Shown: positions 20,921-64,000, numbered from the stretch's first letter. The stretch is DNA of 64,000 nucleotides from Terriglobales bacterium (GCA_049592035.1 JBAWFQ010000127.1:68-64067), one strand, 5' to 3'. Program-made: numbers and translations. Notes: generated by a model from the letters alone, not told the origin.

Positions 20921-21091
20921 TTCTGCTCGGAACCGGGAAGCCAAAAATGAGGATGGGAAATCTGATTTTTTCCACAGGCAGAATAGGAAATCTTTTTATC
21001 TCGTCTTAATCACACGATAACAAATCCCAGCTAAAGTCGTCACAGCCTAGGGTTCTCTTAATTCCAAGTTCTGAGGTCCGGAGGAATTGAC

Positions 21092-56051: not shown

Positions 56052-56510
56052 TCACCGAAACATTCTCAGATCGAACTCGAAGCGCTTGGGTCTTTCGATC
56101 TTCAACTTGTGAAAGTCGGAATGCGCCGGATTCAGCAATACGTTCCATTCGCCGCGAATGGCCGCCGATGGTACATGCAACGCGACCGTCTTGCCCGCAC
56201 GAATCCAATGATCGCCGAATGTCGCGAGCGATTCATCGCGCAGCTCATGCCATTTGCGGGGAAGGGAATTCAGATCGAGACGATCAATGGCGAGATTGTC
56301 GGGAAGCTCCGCTTCAATCGAAACCAAGTCATCGGGCCGCAGATTTGGTTCGAGGTGAACAAAAGTCTCAATCGCAGCCAAAGCCAGAGACGGAGAAGCA
56401 TAAACCACCCGCACGCCCTGACGATTCCAACGGCCGCCATATACCCGGGCGCCCTCGCCCGAGAAAGCGCCAGCAGCATGGACCTCGCGGCAAATCCTCC
56501 ACAGGCGCAT
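56052..56510 (-). CDS. RES-domain toxin (NAD+-degrading/ADP-ribosylating family)
   Basis: MRLWRICREVHAAGAFSGEGARVYGGRWNRQGVRVVYASPSLALAAIETFVHL: the R...E...S landmarks of RES toxins. The start overlaps the antitoxin stop (TGATG). Confidence 0.8.
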   Translation of the reverse strand: MRLWRICREVHAAGAFSGEGARVYGGRWNRQGVRVVYASPSLALAAIETFVHLEPNLRPDDLVSIEAELPDNLAIDRLDLNSLPRKWHELRDESLATFGDHWIRAGKTVALHVPSAAIRGEWNVLLNPAHSDFHKLKIERPKRFEFDLRMFR

Positions 56511-56944
56511 CAGCTATAGACGCCGTAGGCAATGCGCCCGAGAATGTTTTCCACTTCCCTGACCCCCAAGTCGGTGTCAAGTTGATCGATGGGAACCTGG
56601 CCTCCGAGCGCGCGATTGGGGGTTCGAAGCCATTCCGCAGCCTTGCCGGTGTTGCCGATCATTTCAACCGCAGTGGCGTAAACCCGCGCCAGGCGCACGG
56701 TGCGGTCGGACTCGGCGGCGGTGAGGCGGGAGTGCCGGCTCAGGCGTCGAGTCAAAGTTCGCTGCGGGATGCCGAGCTTTTTGGAAAGCGCGGCGCTCTT
56801 GAGATCGAGCTTCGCTCCCAGTACGAGGAGAGAGCTCGAGGGTAACCCTTTGCGGATCAACTCCGCCAGTTCGGCGAAATTCTTAATCGAGCGTCCCAGG
56901 ACTTTTCTGCCTCCTAGTACCTCGGCGATTCCCGCTGAAGTCAT
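56510..56944 (-). CDS. Xre/MbcA/ParS-type antitoxin (HTH + DUF2384-like C-terminal domain)
   Basis: Start taken at ATG 56944. LSKKLGIPQRTLTRRLSRHSRLTAAESDRTVRLARVYATAVEMIGNTGKAAEWLRTPNRALGGQVPIDQLDTDLGVREVENILGRIAYGVYS is the canonical partner of RES toxins. Confidence 0.8.
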   Translation of the reverse strand: MTSAGIAEVLGGRKVLGRSIKNFAELAELIRKGLPSSSLLVLGAKLDLKSAALSKKLGIPQRTLTRRLSRHSRLTAAESDRTVRLARVYATAVEMIGNTGKAAEWLRTPNRALGGQVPIDQLDTDLGVREVENILGRIAYGVYS

Positions 56945-57005
56945 ACTAGCCTCTTGGCTATTTAGAATACGCCAATTGGCCTGACAATACAAGCCCGTGC
57001 CTGAG

Positions 57006-57228
57006 CAGGCTGCTGAAAAATTTAACTTTTGACGTTGTTTCGAAAACGATGGGTGCCCCATCCTTGCGCGTTTTTTTGCGCAAGGGTGGGATTCCACGGC
57101 AGTGTCCGCCTAGGTTTTTGCATTTTCCGCTTGATTTTGCATTTGCTTTTGCTTCTGCTTTTGGGTGGCGCAGCGGTTTACCGCTGCGATAACTGGCCGG
57201 TTTGCATCGACGGCTTTAGCCGCTGAGG
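57006..57228. repeat. Composite REP-like region, family D (copy 1)
   Basis: ggctgctgaaaaattt; 12-bp hairpin ccatccttgcgc-gttttttt-gcgcaagggtgg (57058-57089); core cttttgggtggcgcagcgg-ttta-ccgctgcgataac...ggctttagccgctg (57157-57228), shared with 62494-62565. Confidence 0.65.
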
Positions 57229-57237
57229 GCGCCATCG

Positions 57238-57738
57238 CTACGCGCTTTCGCGGATGGGACCCGACGCTGTTGGCGAAGCTGATTTCAGGTGATCCGCGCC
57301 TCGTACTTCCCAGACTCCGTCGAACTTTACGAAATAGGGTTCGACCGAAACGCCGGGGAAGTTGGAGGTGAGAAGTTCGCCAGCCCGTAAGAGTTCGGTG
57401 CGGTGATGGTCGGCTTCAGCTACCTGGTCGCCTTTGAAATGCGCCAGTCCTCCATAAGTGGCGCAATCGGAGTGGCTCATTACCAGAACGCGCTTCGTCT
57501 GGTGCAGGCGGATGGACATGCGGACCTGCTCGAGAATGAAGTCTTGCTCGAAGTCGTTGCGCGGAGAAGCCAGGGTCTTGGCGCCTCCGGCTACTACGAT
57601 CATGTCGGCGCGCTCGATGGCTTGCTTCTTCAGGAACTTTCGCACGGCGGTGCTGATGCGGTGATCGAAGCAGCAGAGCACGGCAGCGTCGGCCACGTAC
57701 GGGTCGGCGGGAGAGTCGAAATGGAAGATTTTGCGCAT
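57238..57738 (-). CDS. Small beta-class carbonic-anhydrase-like protein (Cab-type size)
   Basis: Start taken at ATG 57738 (166 aa). CCFDHRIS (C-x-D-x-R) and LVMSHSDCATYGG (H-x-x-C) match the beta-CA zinc-ligand pattern and spacing. Confidence 0.4.
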   Translation of the reverse strand: MRKIFHFDSPADPYVADAAVLCCFDHRISTAVRKFLKKQAIERADMIVVAGGAKTLASPRNDFEQDFILEQVRMSIRLHQTKRVLVMSHSDCATYGGLAHFKGDQVAEADHHRTELLRAGELLTSNFPGVSVEPYFVKFDGVWEVRGADHLKSASPTASGPIRESA

Positions 57739-57764
57739 GAGAGCCTTTTCGATTCTAGCTACGG

Positions 57765-59474
57765 TCAGGCGGATTTGTGCGGGAGGTTCAAGATCCAACC
57801 CGCAATTTTTTCCATCGCTACGGGCGACATGGTTTCCTCGATCTCGGAGTACTCGCTGAGCGCGCTGGTCTTGGCCGTCTGGAACAGGTGATTCAGGCCG
57901 GGCAGTTCGTCGACTTCGAAGTTCTTGTTGCCGGCTTCGGCGAGGGTTTTGCGAATGACGGGAAGGTTCTGTTTTGGCGGCACCTGCAAATCTTTTTCGC
58001 CAATCAGGGCCAGCACGGGGCAAGTCACCTTTCGCAGCGCGGTCGCGGGATCGTAGGTGAGGAAGTAACGGAACCAAGGCGAAGTTAGGGTTTTGATTTG
58101 CGCCCCAAGCTGCGCTTCCGTAAGTTTCCCATCTAGCTTCTCGTGTAACTCTTTTTCCAGCACGGCGTCATCTTTTTCGTGCTCCACCAGCGCCAGCACC
58201 TCGCGCTCCTCGGCGGCGTTCTTTTCCGCTTCTTCGGAGCTGGTGCCGGCGGCTTCGGAAATCAGGATTCCCTGGGCCACCACAATCTCGTCTCCCGGCA
58301 CGCCAGAACCCGCCATCATCACGACGAAGGCGACATCAGGATTTTGCGCGGCGGCCATGGGCGCGACGATTCCGCCTTCGCTGTGGCCGATAAGGCCAAT
58401 GCGATGGGGATCAACCTCGGGACGCATTTTCAGGTAGGCCACGCCGGCGTCAGCGTCAGCCGCAAAGTCCACCATGGTCGCAGCGGCATAGTTTCCGTTG
58501 GACTTGGCGCAACCACGTTTGTCGGTTCGCAATACGACAATGCCCTTGCGGGTCAGAAAATCGGCCAACACGAGAAATGGTTTGTGACCCATGATGCTTT
58601 CGTCGCGGTCGTGGGGCCCGGAGCCGGTGATCAAGAGCACGGCGGGGAACGGTCCCTTGCCTGGAGGCGCGGTTAGTGTTGCCGCTAGCGTGATACCCGC
58701 GGCTTTGTTGTCGAACGAGACTTCTTCCTCTTTGTATGGATAGGGCTTTACCGGGTTCTGCGGACGCCGGCGCTCGAGTTCACTGGTGTCTTTTATGCGC
58801 TTGAGGGTCAGGGGCAGCGAGTTTCCCATCTGGGTCCACGTGCCATCGACGATGCTCAGGTCGCTGCTGATCTTGCCTTCGAAATTACCGGCGATGGATT
58901 TCACTTCCAATTTTATAGACGCGCCCTCGCGCGTCGCGGCGGTTACCGGGATTCCATTTTTGCCTTGATCCAGGCTGTCGAGCGTGGCCACTAGACCGTC
59001 TTCGGTGTTGGTGATGTGGAAGACCACGCGGAGTTTCACCGCGCCAGTGTCGAGCGTGCCCAGCCATGCGCCATCGATGTCGGACGGTTTGGCGGCCTTG
59101 TGCTCGGTTTTGACGGGCGCGGCCGCGCGTTTGAAACTCAGCGCCAGGGACTGGCCTTGCGTCCATGTCCCGCTGATCTCGTTTGCGTCGGCGGAGACTT
59201 TGCCTTCGTAGGTGCCGTGGACGGCATCTACGGTAAAGTTCAACTTCGAATCTTCTAGCGATATCGAAGTTACGGGAATTCCGTTGGCCCCCTGATCGAC
59301 GCTGTCGAGCGTGGCTTTGAGGCTGCCGTCAGCGTTCTTGGCAACGTGCAGAACCAGGCGAAGCTCGGCGCCGCCTGCTTTGAGTGTGCCCTGCCAATCG
59401 CCCGCCATGTTCTGGGCCGACGACAGGCCCACCCCGCAGAAAGCAAGAACTGCACAAACCAGTACTCTTTGCAC
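57765..59474 (-). CDS. Secreted alpha/beta hydrolase (S9/dienelactone-hydrolase-like) with two N-terminal ~95-aa lipocalin-like repeats
   Basis: AAGGAG-N8-GTG at 59474 gives the signal peptide (M)QRVLVCAVLAFCGVGLSSAQN. Duplicated module GDWQGTL...LDSVDQGANGIPVT / GAWLGTL...LDSLDQGKNGIPVT. Nucleophile elbow GLIGHSEGG. Confidence 0.75.
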   Translation of the reverse strand: MQRVLVCAVLAFCGVGLSSAQNMAGDWQGTLKAGGAELRLVLHVAKNADGSLKATLDSVDQGANGIPVTSISLEDSKLNFTVDAVHGTYEGKVSADANEISGTWTQGQSLALSFKRAAAPVKTEHKAAKPSDIDGAWLGTLDTGAVKLRVVFHITNTEDGLVATLDSLDQGKNGIPVTAATREGASIKLEVKSIAGNFEGKISSDLSIVDGTWTQMGNSLPLTLKRIKDTSELERRRPQNPVKPYPYKEEEVSFDNKAAGITLAATLTAPPGKGPFPAVLLITGSGPHDRDESIMGHKPFLVLADFLTRKGIVVLRTDKRGCAKSNGNYAAATMVDFAADADAGVAYLKMRPEVDPHRIGLIGHSEGGIVAPMAAAQNPDVAFVVMMAGSGVPGDEIVVAQGILISEAAGTSSEEAEKNAAEEREVLALVEHEKDDAVLEKELHEKLDGKLTEAQLGAQIKTLTSPWFRYFLTYDPATALRKVTCPVLALIGEKDLQVPPKQNLPVIRKTLAEAGNKNFEVDELPGLNHLFQTAKTSALSEYSEIEETMSPVAMEKIAGWILNLPHKSA

Positions 59475-59661
59475 GTCAGATGCTCCTTTCAGAAATAATT
59501 CGTTCGATGGGACCGGCCCCATCGCCATTACGGATGAGCCGACCATTTAGTTGCAGGGCGCTTTCAGCACTTCGATTCTCTGGTGGCTCTCTGACGACAT
59601 CTCCCGATCAAGCACCTGGGCGGACGTCTTCCCCGCTCCGGTATCGGGCCTAACTTCGGGC

Positions 59662-59754
59662 CTAACTAAGGCGCTTCCATAGCAAAGCCACGATGAGCGC
59701 GGCGATGCCGATGAGCATCCCAATCAAACGGGCGTTGTTCGCTTTTTCCGACAT
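59662..59754 (-). CDS. Candidate 30-aa single-TM peptide directly downstream of pspA
   Basis: Own translation: MSEKANNARLIGMLIGIAALIVALLWKRLS*. The ATG lies 8 nt after the pspA stop (tGAGGcaaatcATG gives a GAGG SD). Below the 60-aa cutoff of the ORF track. Confidence 0.4.
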   Translation of the reverse strand: MSEKANNARLIGMLIGIAALIVALLWKRLS

Positions 59755-59762
59755 GATTTGCC

Positions 59763-60422
59763 TCAAGCTCCGCGCTTGGTTTTCAGTTCGGTCAACAGCT
59801 GCTCGATGCGGTCTTCCTTTTCGAGGGCGGCGAGGCGGTTCTCCACGTCGTCGGCCAGGAGTTGGACTTTGGCCTCCCCGATGGCTTCTTCGCGAGCTAC
59901 TTTTTTCTTCATGCGATCGAAGGTGGCGGATTTGCTGTTGGCGTCCATGCCCGACTGCGCGTCGGTGGCGCGATGGGCGACGCGGGCGCGGCGGTGCTGC
60001 GCGATCAGCAGATCGGCTTTGGCGTTGGCCTCGGCTAGCTTCTGGTCGAGATTGCGCAGGGCGGATTTTAAATTTTCTACCTGGGCTTTCTGGTCTTCGA
60101 GTTGCTGCGCGAAGTTTAAGCTCAGGTCGCGATAACTTTCCACGCGGAGCAGAGCAGCGCGGGCGAGGTCATCTTGCTTCTTGTCGACGGCTAGCTCGGC
60201 CTTGCGCATCCACTCCTTAATCTTGTCATCGTTTTCTAGTTTCTTTTTTTCGAGCAGATGCTGGTCGGCGATGGCAATGGCGACCTGGGTTTTCACCTGC
60301 AAGAGTTGGTTGTTCATGTCGAGGATGACCTGCTTGATCATCTTTTCGGGCTCCTCAGCTTTGTCGATCAAGTCGTTGAGATTAGCCCGGACCAGGGTGG
60401 AAACGCGTTCGAGTAATGCCAT
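59763..60422 (-). CDS. pspA: PspA/IM30 family protein (phage shock protein A)
   Basis: MALLERVSTLVRANLNDLIDKAEEPEKMIKQVILDMNNQL... and a coiled coil throughout. 219 aa. Confidence 0.9.
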   Translation of the reverse strand: MALLERVSTLVRANLNDLIDKAEEPEKMIKQVILDMNNQLLQVKTQVAIAIADQHLLEKKKLENDDKIKEWMRKAELAVDKKQDDLARAALLRVESYRDLSLNFAQQLEDQKAQVENLKSALRNLDQKLAEANAKADLLIAQHRRARVAHRATDAQSGMDANSKSATFDRMKKKVAREEAIGEAKVQLLADDVENRLAALEKEDRIEQLLTELKTKRGA

Positions 60423-60447
60423 AAAACACCTCGTGTTGAATTGTTCG

Positions 60448-60675
60448 TTAGTTGTTAGTCGTTGGTCGATGGTCGTTCGTCGTTCGCTGTTCGTCGTTCG
60501 CGCCGGGACCCTCAGGCTTCGCGCTGAAGCCGCCGCGCGCGATGGCGGTTCCCACCAGGATTGCGCTTACCGCAATGCCTACGCTGACGTTGATATTGGC
60601 GTGCGCGAAGAGCAGTGCGATCGCAGCACCTAGGGAAACACCGACTGCGATTGAGATTCCGATGATGCGGTTCAT
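60448..60675 (-). CDS. Small glycine-zipper-type membrane protein
   Basis: Start taken at MNRIIGISIAVGVSLGAAIALLFAHANINVSVGIAVSAILVGTAIARGG... (agagg upstream). The hydrophilic tail ...NDEQRTTNDHRPTTNN is encoded by a degenerate GTTCGTC-type low-complexity tract. Confidence 0.5.
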   Translation of the reverse strand: MNRIIGISIAVGVSLGAAIALLFAHANINVSVGIAVSAILVGTAIARGGFSAKPEGPGANDEQRTTNDHRPTTNN

Positions 60676-60725
60676 ATTCAGCCTCTTTGCTCCTGAGCTC
60701 AGTTTGCGTTGCATGACGGCGACAT

Positions 60726-60905
60726 TTATTTACTGCGGTCGTCGTTCCAGGCGCCGCCGACCAGCGTGATTGCAATGTAGGCTGCGATTCCTACGGCGAC
60801 CCAGATGGCGATGTGGCCGGTAGCAGCCCCGAGAGCCGCACCCATGGCGGCTCCTAGGGCGACCGAGAGGCCTAGTGATCTTGCGTGATGAAGTTCCTGT
60901 TGCAC
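60726..60905 (-). CDS. Candidate 59-aa glycine-zipper membrane protein
   Basis: Own translation from GTG 60905 (GGAGG 5 nt upstream): (M)QQELHHARSLGLSVALGAAMGAALGAATGHIAIWVAVGIAAYIAITLVGGAWNDDRSK*. One residue below the ORF-track cutoff. Confidence 0.5.
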   Translation of the reverse strand: MQQELHHARSLGLSVALGAAMGAALGAATGHIAIWVAVGIAAYIAITLVGGAWNDDRSK

Positions 60906-60932
60906 GACTACCTCCTGAAATCGGTCGTTGTT

Positions 60933-60996
60933 GTGGAGCGCCGGGCGTCCCCGCCCGGCGGCGGTGCGGGACGGGCGCGGACGCCCGTCTCTCCAC
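60933..60996. repeat. GC-rich nested hairpin element between flotillin and the small membrane genes
   Basis: Outer arms gtggag/ctccac enclose ccgggcg-tccc-cgcccgg (60941-60958) and gacgggcg-cgga-cgcccgtc (60970-60989). Confidence 0.5.
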
Positions 60997-60999
60997 TTG

Positions 61000-62424
61000 T
61001 TACTTCTCCTCCGGCTTCGGTGCTTTGTCGCCGATGTGGCGGACTTTGTCTAAGAGCTCTCCTAACGGCATGCCGCTTAGCGTTTCGAATAGCGCCGGCA
61101 CTTGTGCCGCCATCTTTGTTATGTCGCCGGTGATCTTGTTCAGTCCGGCGGTGTCGCCGTTTCCGGTCGAAACGATGGTGATCTTATCCACGTTGGCTAG
61201 TGGCGCGGCCAGGGCTTTCACCACTTCCGGCAAGCCGGTTAGCAGCTTGTCAAGGACTGCGGCCTGGTTGTACTCCTGAAACGCCGCAGCTTTCACGTTC
61301 ATGGCTTTGGCTTCGGCTTCACCTTTTTTGAAGATGATTTCGGCCTCCGCTTCGCCCTGAGCTCGAATCGCTGAGGCGTGGCCTTCGGCTTCGGCGATCA
61401 GACGTTGCTTCTCTGCGGCGGCCAGGGTTTCGATGCGCTGACGCTCGATTTCGGCTTGCTTCAACACCGTCGCGATGAGTTCTTTTTCGCGGCGCGCGAT
61501 TTCGGCGTCCTGGACTTTAACCTGTCCTTCTTTTTCGACTTGCTGCACGCGCACGCTTTCGGTGATGACCTGCTGCTGCATCACGTTCGATTGAATGTCA
61601 TACGACTTATCCGCTTGCGCCTGCTGCTTTTTCGTCACTTCGAGGTACTGCGCTTTCTTGACCTCCAAATCGCGCTGTGACTCGGCCTGCTTCGCCTGAG
61701 ACAGAGTTTCGGCGAGCACGCGCTCCTGATCGGCTTGCGCTTTGGCAACCGCGGCCTCGCGGGTTGCCATGGCGCGCTTGATGGCGGTGTCACGCTCGGC
61801 TTCGGCGGTGGCTACGTCGGCGTCGCGCTTGATGCGGGCTACGTCGGGCTTGCCCATGTTGGTGATGTATTCGTTCTTGTCGCGGACCTCTTTGATGGTG
61901 AAAGAGATGACTTCGAGGCCCATCTTGTTCATGTCGTCGGCGCAGGTGCCACGCATGCGATCGCCAACCATCTCGGGTTGCTTCACGATTTCTTCCACCG
62001 TGAGCTGTCCAATGATGCCGCGGAGATGGCCTTCCATCACCAGGCGGATCAAGCTTTCTCGCTCCTGATCGCTTTTGGTTAAGAACTGCTCGGCTGCGGT
62101 CAGGATCGACTCCTTGTCGGACTTCACCTTGATTTGCGCGACAGCCTCAACGGTGACGGCGACGCCCTGCTTGGTGTAGAGATCCTGTTGCGGGGCTACG
62201 TCGAACGACATCAGTTCGAGCGAAAGGTCCTTGCAGTTTTCGATCATCGGAAAGATGACCGTGCCGTGTCCCTGAACTACGCGAGTCCCGCGAAAGCCGT
62301 AAACGATCAGCGCTTCATGTGGTCCAGCTTTGCGGTATAAGCGGGCCAGCATGCTCATCAGGAACAGGATGATCAGAACCATCAGTCCCGCGATGACCCA
62401 GATTTCAATTGCTATGCCGAACAT
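61000..62424 (-). CDS. Flotillin (SPFH/Band 7 domain + long flotillin coiled-coil repeats)
   Basis: N-terminal hairpin TM, SPFH core (YRKAGPHEALIVYG...VTVEAVAQIKV...HLRGIIGQLTVEEI), then EA-rich repeats (AEAEGHASAIRAQGEAEAEIIFKKGEAEAKA). 474 aa. Confidence 0.9.
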   Translation of the reverse strand: MFGIAIEIWVIAGLMVLIILFLMSMLARLYRKAGPHEALIVYGFRGTRVVQGHGTVIFPMIENCKDLSLELMSFDVAPQQDLYTKQGVAVTVEAVAQIKVKSDKESILTAAEQFLTKSDQERESLIRLVMEGHLRGIIGQLTVEEIVKQPEMVGDRMRGTCADDMNKMGLEVISFTIKEVRDKNEYITNMGKPDVARIKRDADVATAEAERDTAIKRAMATREAAVAKAQADQERVLAETLSQAKQAESQRDLEVKKAQYLEVTKKQQAQADKSYDIQSNVMQQQVITESVRVQQVEKEGQVKVQDAEIARREKELIATVLKQAEIERQRIETLAAAEKQRLIAEAEGHASAIRAQGEAEAEIIFKKGEAEAKAMNVKAAAFQEYNQAAVLDKLLTGLPEVVKALAAPLANVDKITIVSTGNGDTAGLNKITGDITKMAAQVPALFETLSGMPLGELLDKVRHIGDKAPKPEEK

Positions 62425-62431
62425 ATCGCCT

Positions 62432-62640
62432 CCTGAAAAACTCGTTGCCCTCAGCGGCTAAACAGATTGCTGAAAAACTCGATTTTGTTCTTGCTTTTGG
62501 GTGGCGCAGCGGTTTACCGCTGCGATAACCGTCGTATTTTCCGCGGCGGCTTTAGCCGCTGGGGGACGACAGCGCGGAGCCACCGAGTTTTTCAGCAAAT
62601 TGTAAAGTCACCTTCCACGACTGAAGTCGTGCCCTTCCCA
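62432..62640. repeat. Composite REP-like region, families D and E (copy 2)
   Basis: Nested palindrome: ccctcagcggctaaa...tttagccgctgggg and tgctgaaaaactcg...cgagtttttcagca around the core cttttgggtggcgcagcgg-ttta-ccgctgcgataac. Followed by cacgac-tgaa-gtcgtg cccttccc (family E). Confidence 0.7.
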
Positions 62641-62677
62641 AAAACCCGCATCCAGCGCGAGTTAAACCGCAGTTTGT

Positions 62678-63154
62678 TTAGCCACGCGTCAGAACGCCCG
62701 TTACCATGTCCAGGTCTCGCACGATGCGTTCGGGATCGCTGTGGCCCAGATAAATCTCTCCGTTAGAAGTCCGGATATGCACGACCTGGTTGCACCAAAC
62801 GTAGGCTCGCGTGCTGCCGATGCCGCGAATGCCATAACCGCGAGCAAAAGACCAGGGCTCGATGGAATAACCCACGATCGCCCCTTTCGGAATCGAGCGC
62901 AGCCGGAATCCCAACATGCGAATTTCAACACCATGCCGCAGGAAGCGATACTGGAACCCGCTCCATGCCATTGCGCTCACGCCCAGCGCGATCAGACCCA
63001 CCAGGATCGCCGTCCAGACGACCACCGGGGTCCGCCACCGTGGCTGCGACAATGAAATTGCCGGGCCGATCAGCGCCGGCACGATGAGCAGAATCCACAC
63101 TCGCCCCGTGTGCGTTTCTTCCGCCAACACATCGCTCTGGAATGCGTCGTTCAT
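62678..63154 (-). CDS. Two-TM membrane protein with a C-terminal PH-like (bPH-type) domain; unknown function
   Basis: TMs VWILLIVPALIGPAISL and VVVWTAILVGLIALGVSAMAW, then a beta-rich ~85-aa domain (GVEIRMLGFRLRSIPKGAIVGYSIEPW...VHIRTSNGEIYLGHSDPERIVRDL). The domain call is tentative. Confidence 0.45.
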   Translation of the reverse strand: MNDAFQSDVLAEETHTGRVWILLIVPALIGPAISLSQPRWRTPVVVWTAILVGLIALGVSAMAWSGFQYRFLRHGVEIRMLGFRLRSIPKGAIVGYSIEPWSFARGYGIRGIGSTRAYVWCNQVVHIRTSNGEIYLGHSDPERIVRDLDMVTGVLTRG

Positions 63155-63178
63155 AATTCAGCGCGCCGCTGTCATTCC

Positions 63179-63802
63179 TCAATTCTGTGGCGCTGGCTCT
63201 TCGCCGCTCATCTCTTCCCACAGCCGCACGTAAGCAATGCCTTTGTCGTAATGCGTGACCACAATCTCCGCGCCCTTTTCGATCGCGGCGCCGTTTTCGC
63301 TGCGGGCGCCGCAGGTTCTCCGCGTTCCGGCCTGCGAGTAAATGATTTCGCCGGTGCCGTCTTCGCGGATGGGCATTGAGATTCGCCCCAGCACGCCCAC
63401 CATCTCGTAGTCGGCCGAATCCATGTTCTCCTCGCGCGAGACGAGCACCCGGCTGAGAAACAGGAAAACGATGCCAGCACCAACCATCCCGGCAGCGATG
63501 GCGATCAGGAGTCCGAGCGCGAACCAGATGCTGGAGAAGCGCGTGATCAGAAATCCGGTGCCTCCGAACCAGGCCAGAAATGCGGTCAGCGTGACGAAGT
63601 TGTACGGCGACACGGAACCCTGGCGGGTATGCGCCGATGCTCCCCTCCCGCCATGGCCCACGGGTGCGTGCCCGGCTCCGACATGCCCGGCAGCGTTGGG
63701 GAAGTGGGGCAGGTGCCAGTGCATTCCTCCAGCGATGAACGAAACCGCGCTCAACAGAAATCCGATGGCGAAACATACCAGATAAAAATCAGCCCAATTC
63801 AT
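63179..63802 (-). CDS. NfeD family membrane protein (YuaF-like, C-terminal OB fold)
   Basis: Multi-TM N-terminus with a His/Gly-rich loop. C-terminal GVLGRISMPIREDGTGEIIYSQAGTRRTCGARSENGAAIEKGAEIVVTHYDKGIAYV is NfeD OB-domain-like. ATGA overlap with the upstream gene. Confidence 0.75.
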   Translation of the reverse strand: MNWADFYLVCFAIGFLLSAVSFIAGGMHWHLPHFPNAAGHVGAGHAPVGHGGRGASAHTRQGSVSPYNFVTLTAFLAWFGGTGFLITRFSSIWFALGLLIAIAAGMVGAGIVFLFLSRVLVSREENMDSADYEMVGVLGRISMPIREDGTGEIIYSQAGTRRTCGARSENGAAIEKGAEIVVTHYDKGIAYVRLWEEMSGEEPAPQN

Positions 63803-64000
63803 AAGCTTCGCCTCCTCGGCGCGACTCCGGTGTCGCGCCCAGCTTCCGGACGCAGCGCTTCGAATAATCGGTCGGCGAGTCCGGGTGTGTTCAGAATTTC
63901 GCCGAGCAAGAGCAGACAGCGGCGCGTGTCCTTGTCGCGCGCGACCTTGATCAGAACCTCGCTCACCTGGGGGTCGCTGGCGAAACGCTCCGAGCCTTGC
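63799..64000 (-). CDS. Hypothetical protein, C-terminal fragment (5' end outside the window)
   Basis: Own translation: ...GSERFASDPQVSEVLIKVARDKDTRRCLLLLGEILNTPGLADRLFEALRPEAGRDTGVAPRRRSL*. The stop is coupled (ATGA) to the nfeD start. Confidence 0.4.
   Translation of the reverse strand, partial: QGSERFASDPQVSEVLIKVARDKDTRRCLLLLGEILNTPGLADRLFEALRPEAGRDTGVAPRRRSL

Follow-up and report, generated by a model that had tools for sequence, protein, structure and literature searches.

How PspA, the bacterial ESCRT-III protein, finds damaged membrane and whether SPFH and flotillin scaffolds have a part in this is an active question, to which only work on Bacillus subtilis, with an atypical soluble SPFH protein, has given an answer to date. 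The same question is raised by a gene cluster on the minus strand of a 64,000 nucleotide stretch of Terriglobales bacterium DNA, hereafter called the window, in which genes for an NfeD-like protein, a flotillin and PspA are found together with several small membrane proteins (positions 59662-63802). Do these genes belong to one system or to two neighbouring ones? A preliminary description of the cluster had listed seven co-oriented genes, and all seven open reading frames (ORFs) were recovered on the minus strand with unchanged coordinates. Judged from sequence comparison, they probably form, together with a regulator gene at the edge of the window, a single autoregulated envelope-stress operon that is typical of Terriglobales (soil Acidobacteriota). 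The gene order of this operon is a helix-turn-helix (HTH) regulator, NfeD, an optional DUF1648/PH-like protein, flotillin, one or more glycine-zipper proteins, PspA and an optional tiny transmembrane (TM) peptide. The observed basis consists of the identities of the genes, their conserved order and orientation, the coupling of the HTH gene to nfeD, a promoter and operator seen in relatives, and RNA contigs that span the gene junctions.

The flotillin (474 amino acids, positions 61000-62424) lies above the Pfam cut-offs for both Band_7, with 101 bits (cut-off 23.6, E 1e-28), and Flot, with 33.9 bits (cut-off 27, E 3.7e-8), which bears out its earlier designation as a true flotillin. Residues 32-458 align with human flotillin-1 and flotillin-2 (E 9e-83). 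From the N-terminus the protein consists of a hydrophobic anchor, an SPFH domain, a coiled coil rich in Glu and Ala and the C-terminal Flot domain. The anchor is recognisable in residues 3-26 (GIAIEIWVIAGLMVLIILFLMSML), a stretch of hydrophobic residues throughout, after which comes RLYRK. Against the NCBIfam FloT equivalog NF058507 the flotillin scores 340.5 bits, under the cut-off of 700. PspA (219 amino acids, positions 59763-60422) matches the PspA/IM30 family (Pfam: PF04012) over residues 3-217 with 121.1 bits (cut-off 33.9, E 7e-35), and it aligns over its full length with the solved cyanobacterial PspA/Vipp1 (E ~1e-33). It stays under the NCBIfam equivalog cut-offs, with 126.7 bits for TIGR02977 (cut-off 242.95), 87.8 bits for NF007974 (cut-off 336) and 51.4 bits for LiaH (cut-off 380). 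The protein is a member of the family and not an ortholog-level match to the proteobacterial PspA or to LiaH. None of the cluster proteins, to which this search was confined, contains a PspB, PspC, PspD or PspF type domain of Pfam or NCBIfam, in agreement with the earlier remark that the classical PspBCDF partners are missing.

We compared the cluster with 80 loci of relatives (numbered L001, L005 and so on), which were found through their flotillins as the closest matches, with one genome per species, and which all come from metagenome-assembled genomes of Terriglobales/Acidobacteriaceae. The flotillins of these loci are 84-98% identical to that of the window. PspA is found downstream of the flotillin in all 80 loci, with 72-97% identity to the PspA of the window among full-length matches, and nfeD as well as the HTH gene are found upstream in 79 of the 80. 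A protein of the type of gz59, a 59 amino acid glycine-zipper protein, is encoded between flotillin and pspA in about 75 of the 80 loci (tblastn). The flanking and accessory genes vary across the 80 loci; the adjacency and orientation of flotillin and pspA are constant. The arrangement recurs far beyond chance. It is therefore not unique to the window, and the linkage of two modules that had been called usually separate, the nfeD-flotillin pair and PspA, is the rule within this lineage (80/80). Even the divergent locus L084 has the same gene order, plus one extra DUF4019 gene; its identity to the window is 82% for flotillin, 65% for PspA, 45% for NfeD and 36% for the PH module. Among the small and PH-like partners, the gz59-type protein alone is nearly universal. 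The PH-like protein, the second glycine-zipper protein (gz88) and a 30 amino acid peptide are variable accessories; gz88 was counted in about 6/80 loci and the peptide in 9/77.

From the HTH gene to the peptide, the intergenic gaps in the window are -4, 24, 253, 94, 11 (or 50), 25 and 8 nucleotides; in the relatives, the median gap between the end of the small ORF and pspA is 31 nucleotides. The gaps had been summarised as short or filled by repetitive extragenic palindromic (REP) elements. Most of them are indeed short, and a repeat element is found in one gap only, between the PH-like gene and the flotillin gene.

The NfeD-like protein (207 amino acids, positions 63179-63802) has three predicted TM segments, a conserved loop rich in His and a putative C-terminal beta domain at about residues 129-199. 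No Pfam family, including NfeD (Pfam: PF01957), matches the protein of the window, and five of 22 orthologs touch PF01957 below the threshold (best E 0.021). A profile of the 22 orthologs has a single PDB match, which is YuaF (2k14, E 0.0017), over residues 129-199. Furthermore, the ortholog in L084 (45% identical, E 2e-63) carries the precomputed annotation NfeD_TM (Pfam: PF25842), as does the homologous gene in the nfeD position of L083. The gene is upstream of and co-oriented with the SPFH gene in 79 of the 80 loci, directly adjacent to it in 18 and with one gene between them in most others. The assignment as NfeD, of the YuaF/YqiJ type, draws on the YuaF profile match and the annotation of the ortholog, and by sequence it is weak, with no Pfam match for the protein of the window itself. 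His and Gly are abundant in the loop between TM1 and TM2 (residues 27-65). All 22 orthologs share H30 and H33, and the remainder of the loop differs in length among them. The loop might respond to metal or to pH.

Of the HTH gene, the window contains the 3' end (about 67 of 168 codons, positions 63799-64000, minus strand). This XRE/EspR-like gene is the first gene of the operon. Its full length of 168 amino acids was read from L005:8251-8757, where the protein is 87% identical over the part found in the window. The best PDB match is the HTH domain of Mycobacterium tuberculosis EspR (E 2e-4), and the ortholog in L084 passes Pfam HTH_3. The gene overlaps nfeD by the four nucleotides ATGA at positions 63799-63802, as had been noted before, and the same overlap is found in 66 of 79 loci. 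Upstream of the HTH gene, the relatives possess a near-invariant promoter of the sigma-70 type, CTTGACA-N16-TATTAT (for example L005:8200-8250 and L001), which comes after the terminator of the preceding gene. This promoter is overlapped by palindromic, alternating half-sites, ATATCGCA and TGCGATAT, and a third half-site, TATCGCGA, occurs in series with them. The start codon follows about 16 nucleotides past the -10 box, from which a nearly leaderless HTH mRNA can be predicted. The arrangement suggests that the half-sites serve the HTH protein as an operator, on such a nearly leaderless transcript. Promoter and operator are known from the relatives only, as the corresponding DNA would lie beyond the end of the window; no copy of the operator motif was found inside the window.

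Transcripts of relatives are represented in four wetland or peat metatranscriptomes, in which we found contigs of 85-95% identity to the cluster, none of them from this exact genome. Flotillin and PspA are well covered. Contigs bridge the junction between nfeD and the PH-like gene, the junction between the PH-like gene and flotillin, where positions 62422-62678 with the 253 nucleotide gap are skipped, the junction between flotillin and gz59, where positions 60930-61000 are skipped (in three of the four runs), and the junction between gz59 and pspA, where gz88 is skipped. These junction-spanning contigs fit one transcript, and the cluster is apparently co-transcribed, as had been presumed. In a scan for consensus promoters and terminators, the coding strand of the region yielded nothing convincing and no sigma-70-like promoter.

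Two of the spacers are strongly structured. The GC-rich spacer between floT and gz59 (positions 60906-60999, minus strand) has a folding energy of -54 kcal/mol (z -3.9) and consists of two perfect hairpins that lack a U tract; the Shine-Dalgarno motif of gz59, AGGAGG, comes next. A hairpin directly after the flotillin stop codon is also found in L019, L024, L028, L034, L049, L050, L059 and L077, with compensatory stems such as GGGC/GCCC, AGCC/GGCT and GGGA/TCCC. Placed where the operon halves meet, this hairpin may stabilise the mRNA or have an attenuating effect. The gap between the PH-like gene and floT folds with -101 kcal/mol (z -2.9) and has a hairpin with a U run after the PH-like gene; the corresponding gaps of the relatives are much shorter than the 253 nucleotides of the window. 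Both spacer structures may modulate the relative expression of the operon halves. In the Rfam search only two sub-threshold CRISPR-DR29 matches were obtained, both in GC hairpins, and we judged them to be chance matches.

Several points weigh against a single operon. The promoter and the operator were observed in relatives only, beyond position 64000 of the window. The RNA contigs are assembled, unstranded and from relatives, and they may include DNA carry-over. Moreover, the structured gaps of 253 and 94 nucleotides may hold internal terminators or promoters, so that nfeD and floT may be expressed differently from the glycine-zipper genes and pspA. An explanation that we consider unlikely, though it is the strongest of the alternatives, is that two functionally independent modules share a neighbourhood, HTH-nfeD-(X)-floT on the one hand and the glycine-zipper gene with pspA on the other, the latter with its own promoter in the spacer between floT and gz59 and with no physical cooperation between the products. 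Such a division would agree with the spacer of about 100 nucleotides or more with its conserved GC hairpin, which is present in nearly all loci, and with the many bacteria in which NfeD-flotillin pairs are found without PspA (Ravi et al., PMC11237479). The apparent contig depth is also lower over nfeD and the PH-like gene than over floT and pspA, a difference that is confounded by the lower sequence conservation of the former. What argues against independent modules is that adjacency and orientation are kept in 80 of 80 loci while flanks and accessories vary, that RNA contigs span the very junction between floT and gz59 in three of four runs, that the region yielded no sigma-70-like promoter on the coding strand, and that the recruitment of PspA in B. 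subtilis needs an SPFH protein (PMC8581546).

If the cluster is one operon, the following course of events can be proposed by analogy with known systems. The HTH protein would bind the palindrome and keep its own operon repressed as long as no membrane stress occurs. NfeD would assist the assembly of a membrane-anchored flotillin cage, which would mark or organise a membrane patch. PspA, as an ESCRT-III-like polymer, would be recruited to the flotillin patch and would seal or remodel the damaged bilayer. The gz59-type protein could serve as the membrane anchor or sensor of PspA, a role taken elsewhere by LiaI, PspB/C or YdjG/H, and the DUF1648/PH-like protein, gz88 and the 30 amino acid peptide could be lineage-specific modulators. 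A more specific version, which we regard as rather doubtful, has the gz59-type proteins, many of them with a CxxC...H..H knuckle that would be cytoplasmic, and the DUF1648/PH-like proteins act as dedicated adaptors that would physically couple the flotillin/NfeD cage to the polymerisation of PspA and would sequester the HTH repressor at the membrane to relay damage, a route distinct from PspF-PspA, LiaFSR and sigma-W. The Terriglobales are a natural test case for the direct cooperation of flotillin and PspA, because an anchored flotillin, NfeD and PspA are probably encoded in one regulated operon. For experiments, gz59 and the DUF1648/PH protein are available as candidate adaptors, as is an operator of defined sequence.

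Alternatively, the operon might encode mainly a stress-signalling device and not a repair machine, with the membrane proteins and the flotillin controlling the HTH protein or wider transcription and with PspA as a dispensable output, as was proposed for SamGHI of B. subtilis. The position of the regulator as the first gene, its translational coupling to nfeD and the near-invariant operator would suit this proposal, and according to the SamGHI preprint the loss of the SPFH protein leads to global transcriptional change and PspA is dispensable for the phenotype (bioRxiv 10.64898/2026.02.06.704340). For the Terriglobales cluster we nevertheless hold a mainly signalling role to be very unlikely, as PspA is the most strictly kept partner (80/80 loci, 72-97% identical) and no kinase, anti-sigma or other signalling domain was found in the cluster with Pfam and NCBIfam.

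Besides the conserved genes, the proposed operon has a variable slot between nfeD and floT. In the window it is occupied by a protein of 158 amino acids with two TM segments (positions 62678-63154, minus strand), for which no Pfam, NCBIfam or PDB sequence-profile match was found. With diverse family representatives in the alignment, AlphaFold2 modelled it with a predicted local distance difference test score (pLDDT) of 92.9 and a predicted template modelling score of 0.83; a shallow alignment of sequences of 71-95% identity gave a pLDDT of 55.6. The model comprises an N-terminal strand, a hairpin of two TM helices, a beta-sandwich and a C-terminal helix, with eight strands in the model. The top PDB matches of this model in Foldseek all belong to the PH superfold (Pob3/SSRP1, the PTB domain of ICAP1, FERM-C and the PH domain of GRK2), with a probability of 0.99, a template modelling score on the target of at most 0.53 and weak E-values (7.5e-3 or worse). 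As the best fold matches are PH-superfold domains, the label PH-like is supported at the level of the fold, within the limits of these E-values, and the preliminary description was correct in this respect. The Pfam bPH families match neither the protein of the window nor the PH halves of 42 family members, in which only DUF1648 was found, in the N-terminal halves.

The PH-like family is tiny: clustered at 50% identity, it accounts for only 129 clusters in a set of 1.84 billion proteins. Most of its members are about 300 amino acids long and have an N-terminal DUF1648. In the slot, a fusion of about 300 amino acids with DUF1648 (Pfam: PF07853) and the PH-like module is the most frequent content (32 of 79 loci). 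The DUF1648 half is found alone in 16 loci, the PH-like half alone, as in the window, in nine, and both as separate ORFs in one; 18 slots are empty and three hold other content, in two cases a homologue of a hydrolase. The PH-like module is thereby present in 42 of the 79 loci. The family is not exclusive to this operon, as distant members adjoin an ABC ATPase or unrelated genes. Distant proteins with DUF1648 and the PH-like module show translational coupling to the gene of an ABC-transporter ATPase in L087-L089 (P0215) and L082 (P0231), which gives the family a second, unrelated genomic context. In L087-L089 a Ser/Thr kinase gene comes after them.

The small proteins of the operon are less uniform. 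gz59 (positions 60726-60905, minus strand) is a predicted hairpin of two TM segments with a Gly/Ala zipper. Its motif AxGH(I/V/M)xxW is matched in 71 loci, and 46 of these 71 relatives have a CxxC...H..H tail, which gz59 of the window lacks. Among 22 sequences, differences at codon positions 1, 2 and 3 number 892, 523 and 4570, and synonymous changes outnumber non-synonymous ones by 4012 to 1211. A profile search returned 2286 homologues, which are pre-annotated as PF26273.1 and Gly-zipper_YMGG. gz88 (positions 60448-60675, minus strand), likewise a Gly/Ala-zipper protein with two TM segments, has homologues in L010, L022, L039, L046 and L054 only, which share its start and have an ARGRFS motif. 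Its longest ORF starts at 60714, and it is probably 75 amino acids long because the internal ATG at 60675 is where the homologues begin; the differences at the three codon positions (50/23/86) are coding-like. The 30 amino acid peptide with a single TM segment, MSEKANNARLIGMLIGIAALIVALLWKRLS (positions 59662-59754, minus strand), starts eight nucleotides past the pspA stop codon. Homologues in the same position are found in L005, L008, L009, L010, L011, L020, L024 and L063. The PspAs of these loci share 76-95% identity with that of the window, and the codon-position differences of the peptide (234/172/403) are in excess at the third position. Eight other loci have an unrelated protein of 60-75 amino acids with two TM segments in its place.

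Neither gz59 nor gz88 nor the peptide has a Pfam or NCBIfam match above threshold. Shine-Dalgarno motifs are present at proper spacing before the small ORFs, and the codon-position pattern is coding-like, which agrees with their earlier treatment as genes. The patterns show purifying selection on all three predicted genes, clearest for gz59. We give next to no weight to the idea that the three are untranslated chance ORFs in GC-rich spacers, which draws on their shortness, on the lack of a curated Pfam or NCBIfam family in the local searches and on the absence of gz88 and the peptide from most relatives, in view of the third-position and synonymous excess (strong in gz59, in the same direction in the other two), the well-spaced Shine-Dalgarno motifs, the amino acid motifs kept across lineages whose PspAs are only ~76% identical and the many homologues that gz59 has in the database (2286, under a newer Pfam accession).

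A 7 nucleotide tandem repeat, TCGTTCG x8 on the plus strand (positions 60445-60500, Tandem Repeats Finder), reads CGAACGA/CGACCAA on the coding strand and spans the tail of gz88 and the pspA leader in the window. The same motif is found on both sides of gz59 in L001, L003, L005, L009 and L018, where it encodes the RTTND tails of the small proteins. The repeat could act in translation or regulation, or it could have arisen by simple-sequence drift.

Small integral membrane proteins that act as anchors or regulators are known from other PspA systems, with LiaI-LiaH, PspB/PspC and the clgR-pspA-pspM-pspN operon of M. tuberculosis as examples. The cluster of the window resembles them in that small integral membrane proteins are encoded beside pspA, and it resembles the mycobacterial operon also in that a regulator of the XRE type comes first. 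In sequence, gz59, gz88 and the peptide have no detectable relationship to LiaI, PspB/C or PspM/N, as judged from the lack of family matches. ClgR, PspM and PspN are listed among the neighbours of PspA by Ravi et al. (PMC11237479).

The functional model that seems best suited to the cluster, by analogy, is the pspA-ydjGHI (samGHI) operon of B. subtilis, in which the gene of PspA is likewise accompanied by those of an SPFH protein and of small membrane proteins. For its recruitment to the membrane, PspA of B. subtilis requires YdjI, which is the SPFH protein, as well as YdjG and YdjH, which are the membrane proteins (PMC8581546; bioRxiv 10.64898/2026.02.06.704340). The differences are considerable. 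YdjI is a soluble SPFH protein with no flotillin domain or anchor, whereas the flotillin of the window has both. YdjG with its zinc ribbons and YdjH with its TPM domain have no recognised homologues in the cluster; no TPM or zinc-ribbon family was matched by any cluster protein in Pfam or NCBIfam. Conversely, the ydjGHI operon has no NfeD. In B. subtilis pspA is the first gene, in the window it is the last large gene, and the B. subtilis operon is under sigma-W, whereas the cluster of the window has a predicted regulator of its own, the HTH protein. The pairs yuaF-floT of B. subtilis and yqiJ-yqiK of E. coli are similar to the other half of the cluster, with a multi-TM NfeD-like gene upstream of the gene for an anchored SPFH protein or flotillin. 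These operons contain neither pspA nor an HTH gene, and in the lineage of the window there is often an extra gene between nfeD and floT.

The closest published neighbourhood is that of Popp et al. 2022 (mSystems, PMC9239133), who reported, computationally and at the level of Pfam domains, acidobacterial PspA together with Band7/FloT, NfeD and an HTH regulator. Band7_Flot is given there as a neighbour for 11 of 19 acidobacterial PspAs (58%). The phylum and the four domain types are the same, and the cluster of the window is an instance of this neighbourhood. Ravi et al. 2024 (PMC11237479) described PspA operons with TM-Band7-coiled-coil-flotillin proteins and YqiJ/YuaF proteins with three TM segments. 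Their CesT/Tir-PspA operons are similar to the cluster in linking PspA to a flotillin and a YqiJ/YuaF-type protein. In contrast to these operons, the cluster has no CesT/Tir (DUF2170), AAA+ ATPase or phospholipase D gene, and it has the HTH and the glycine-zipper proteins. The preliminary description had taken the cluster for a possibly distinct, previously unrecognised system; this claim is not supported, as the core arrangement is already contained in PMC9239133 and related operons in PMC11237479.

As far as it was read, the account of Popp et al. makes no mention of a DUF1648/PH-like gene (with 0 occurrences of DUF1648), a glycine-zipper protein, the 30 amino acid peptide or the operator. 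It does describe Hvo_2637 of Haloferax volcanii, a TM protein with a bPH_4 domain beside pspA (PMC9239133). By description only, this protein can be likened to the 158 amino acid protein of the window, both being PH-type membrane proteins near pspA; Hvo_2637 is archaeal and the protein of the window matches no Pfam bPH family. A search of the literature on DUF1648 and on flotillin with PspA in Acidobacteria returned nothing further. For the modular DUF1648/PH gene, the glycine-zipper/CxxC family beside pspA, the 30 amino acid peptide and the operator we found no published description, and we regard them as refinements of a known arrangement and not as a new kind of system.

The repeat in the gap between the PH-like gene and floT is a dispersed, hairpin-forming, REP-like element of 83 nucleotides (positions 62483-62565). 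A second copy at positions 57147-57229 is 84% identical, and the core is TCGCAGCGGTnnACCGCTGCGCC. In the relatives the repeat is found at L003:7662-7684 and at L006:7645-7667 and 21031-21053. Its very high contig depth in the four metatranscriptomes suggests a multi-copy, transcribed REP-like element in these Acidobacteria.

Some genes next to the cluster were considered as further members of the operon and rejected. An alpha/beta hydrolase gene (positions 57765-59546, minus strand) follows the cluster in the window and is near it in only five of the 80 loci. The hydrolase is secreted and EstD-like, with S9/S15-type folds, and related loci are L023, L070 and L078; in L070 and L078 the homologue lies between nfeD and floT, in the slot of the DUF1648/PH gene. 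A Pro_CA_2-like gene (positions 57238-57741, minus strand), with a putative carbonic-anhydrase fold, has a homologue behind pspA and in the same orientation in only 22 of the 80 loci, most of which belong to the nearest relatives. It is 84% identical to the gene directly after pspA in L005, and in the window the hydrolase gene separates it from the pspA cluster. A reading of the cluster as anti-phage defence was rejected as well, as PADLOC gave only two insignificant matches to the cluster proteins (E 0.002 and 0.007). Further along the minus strand, a RES-Xre (ParST-like) toxin-antitoxin pair is encoded at positions 56052-57097. The ORF of 152 amino acids (positions 56052-56510) matches the ParT RES toxin (E 1e-25), and the overlapping ORF of 195 amino acids (positions 56510-57097) matches the Xre/DUF2384 antitoxin (E 2e-12).

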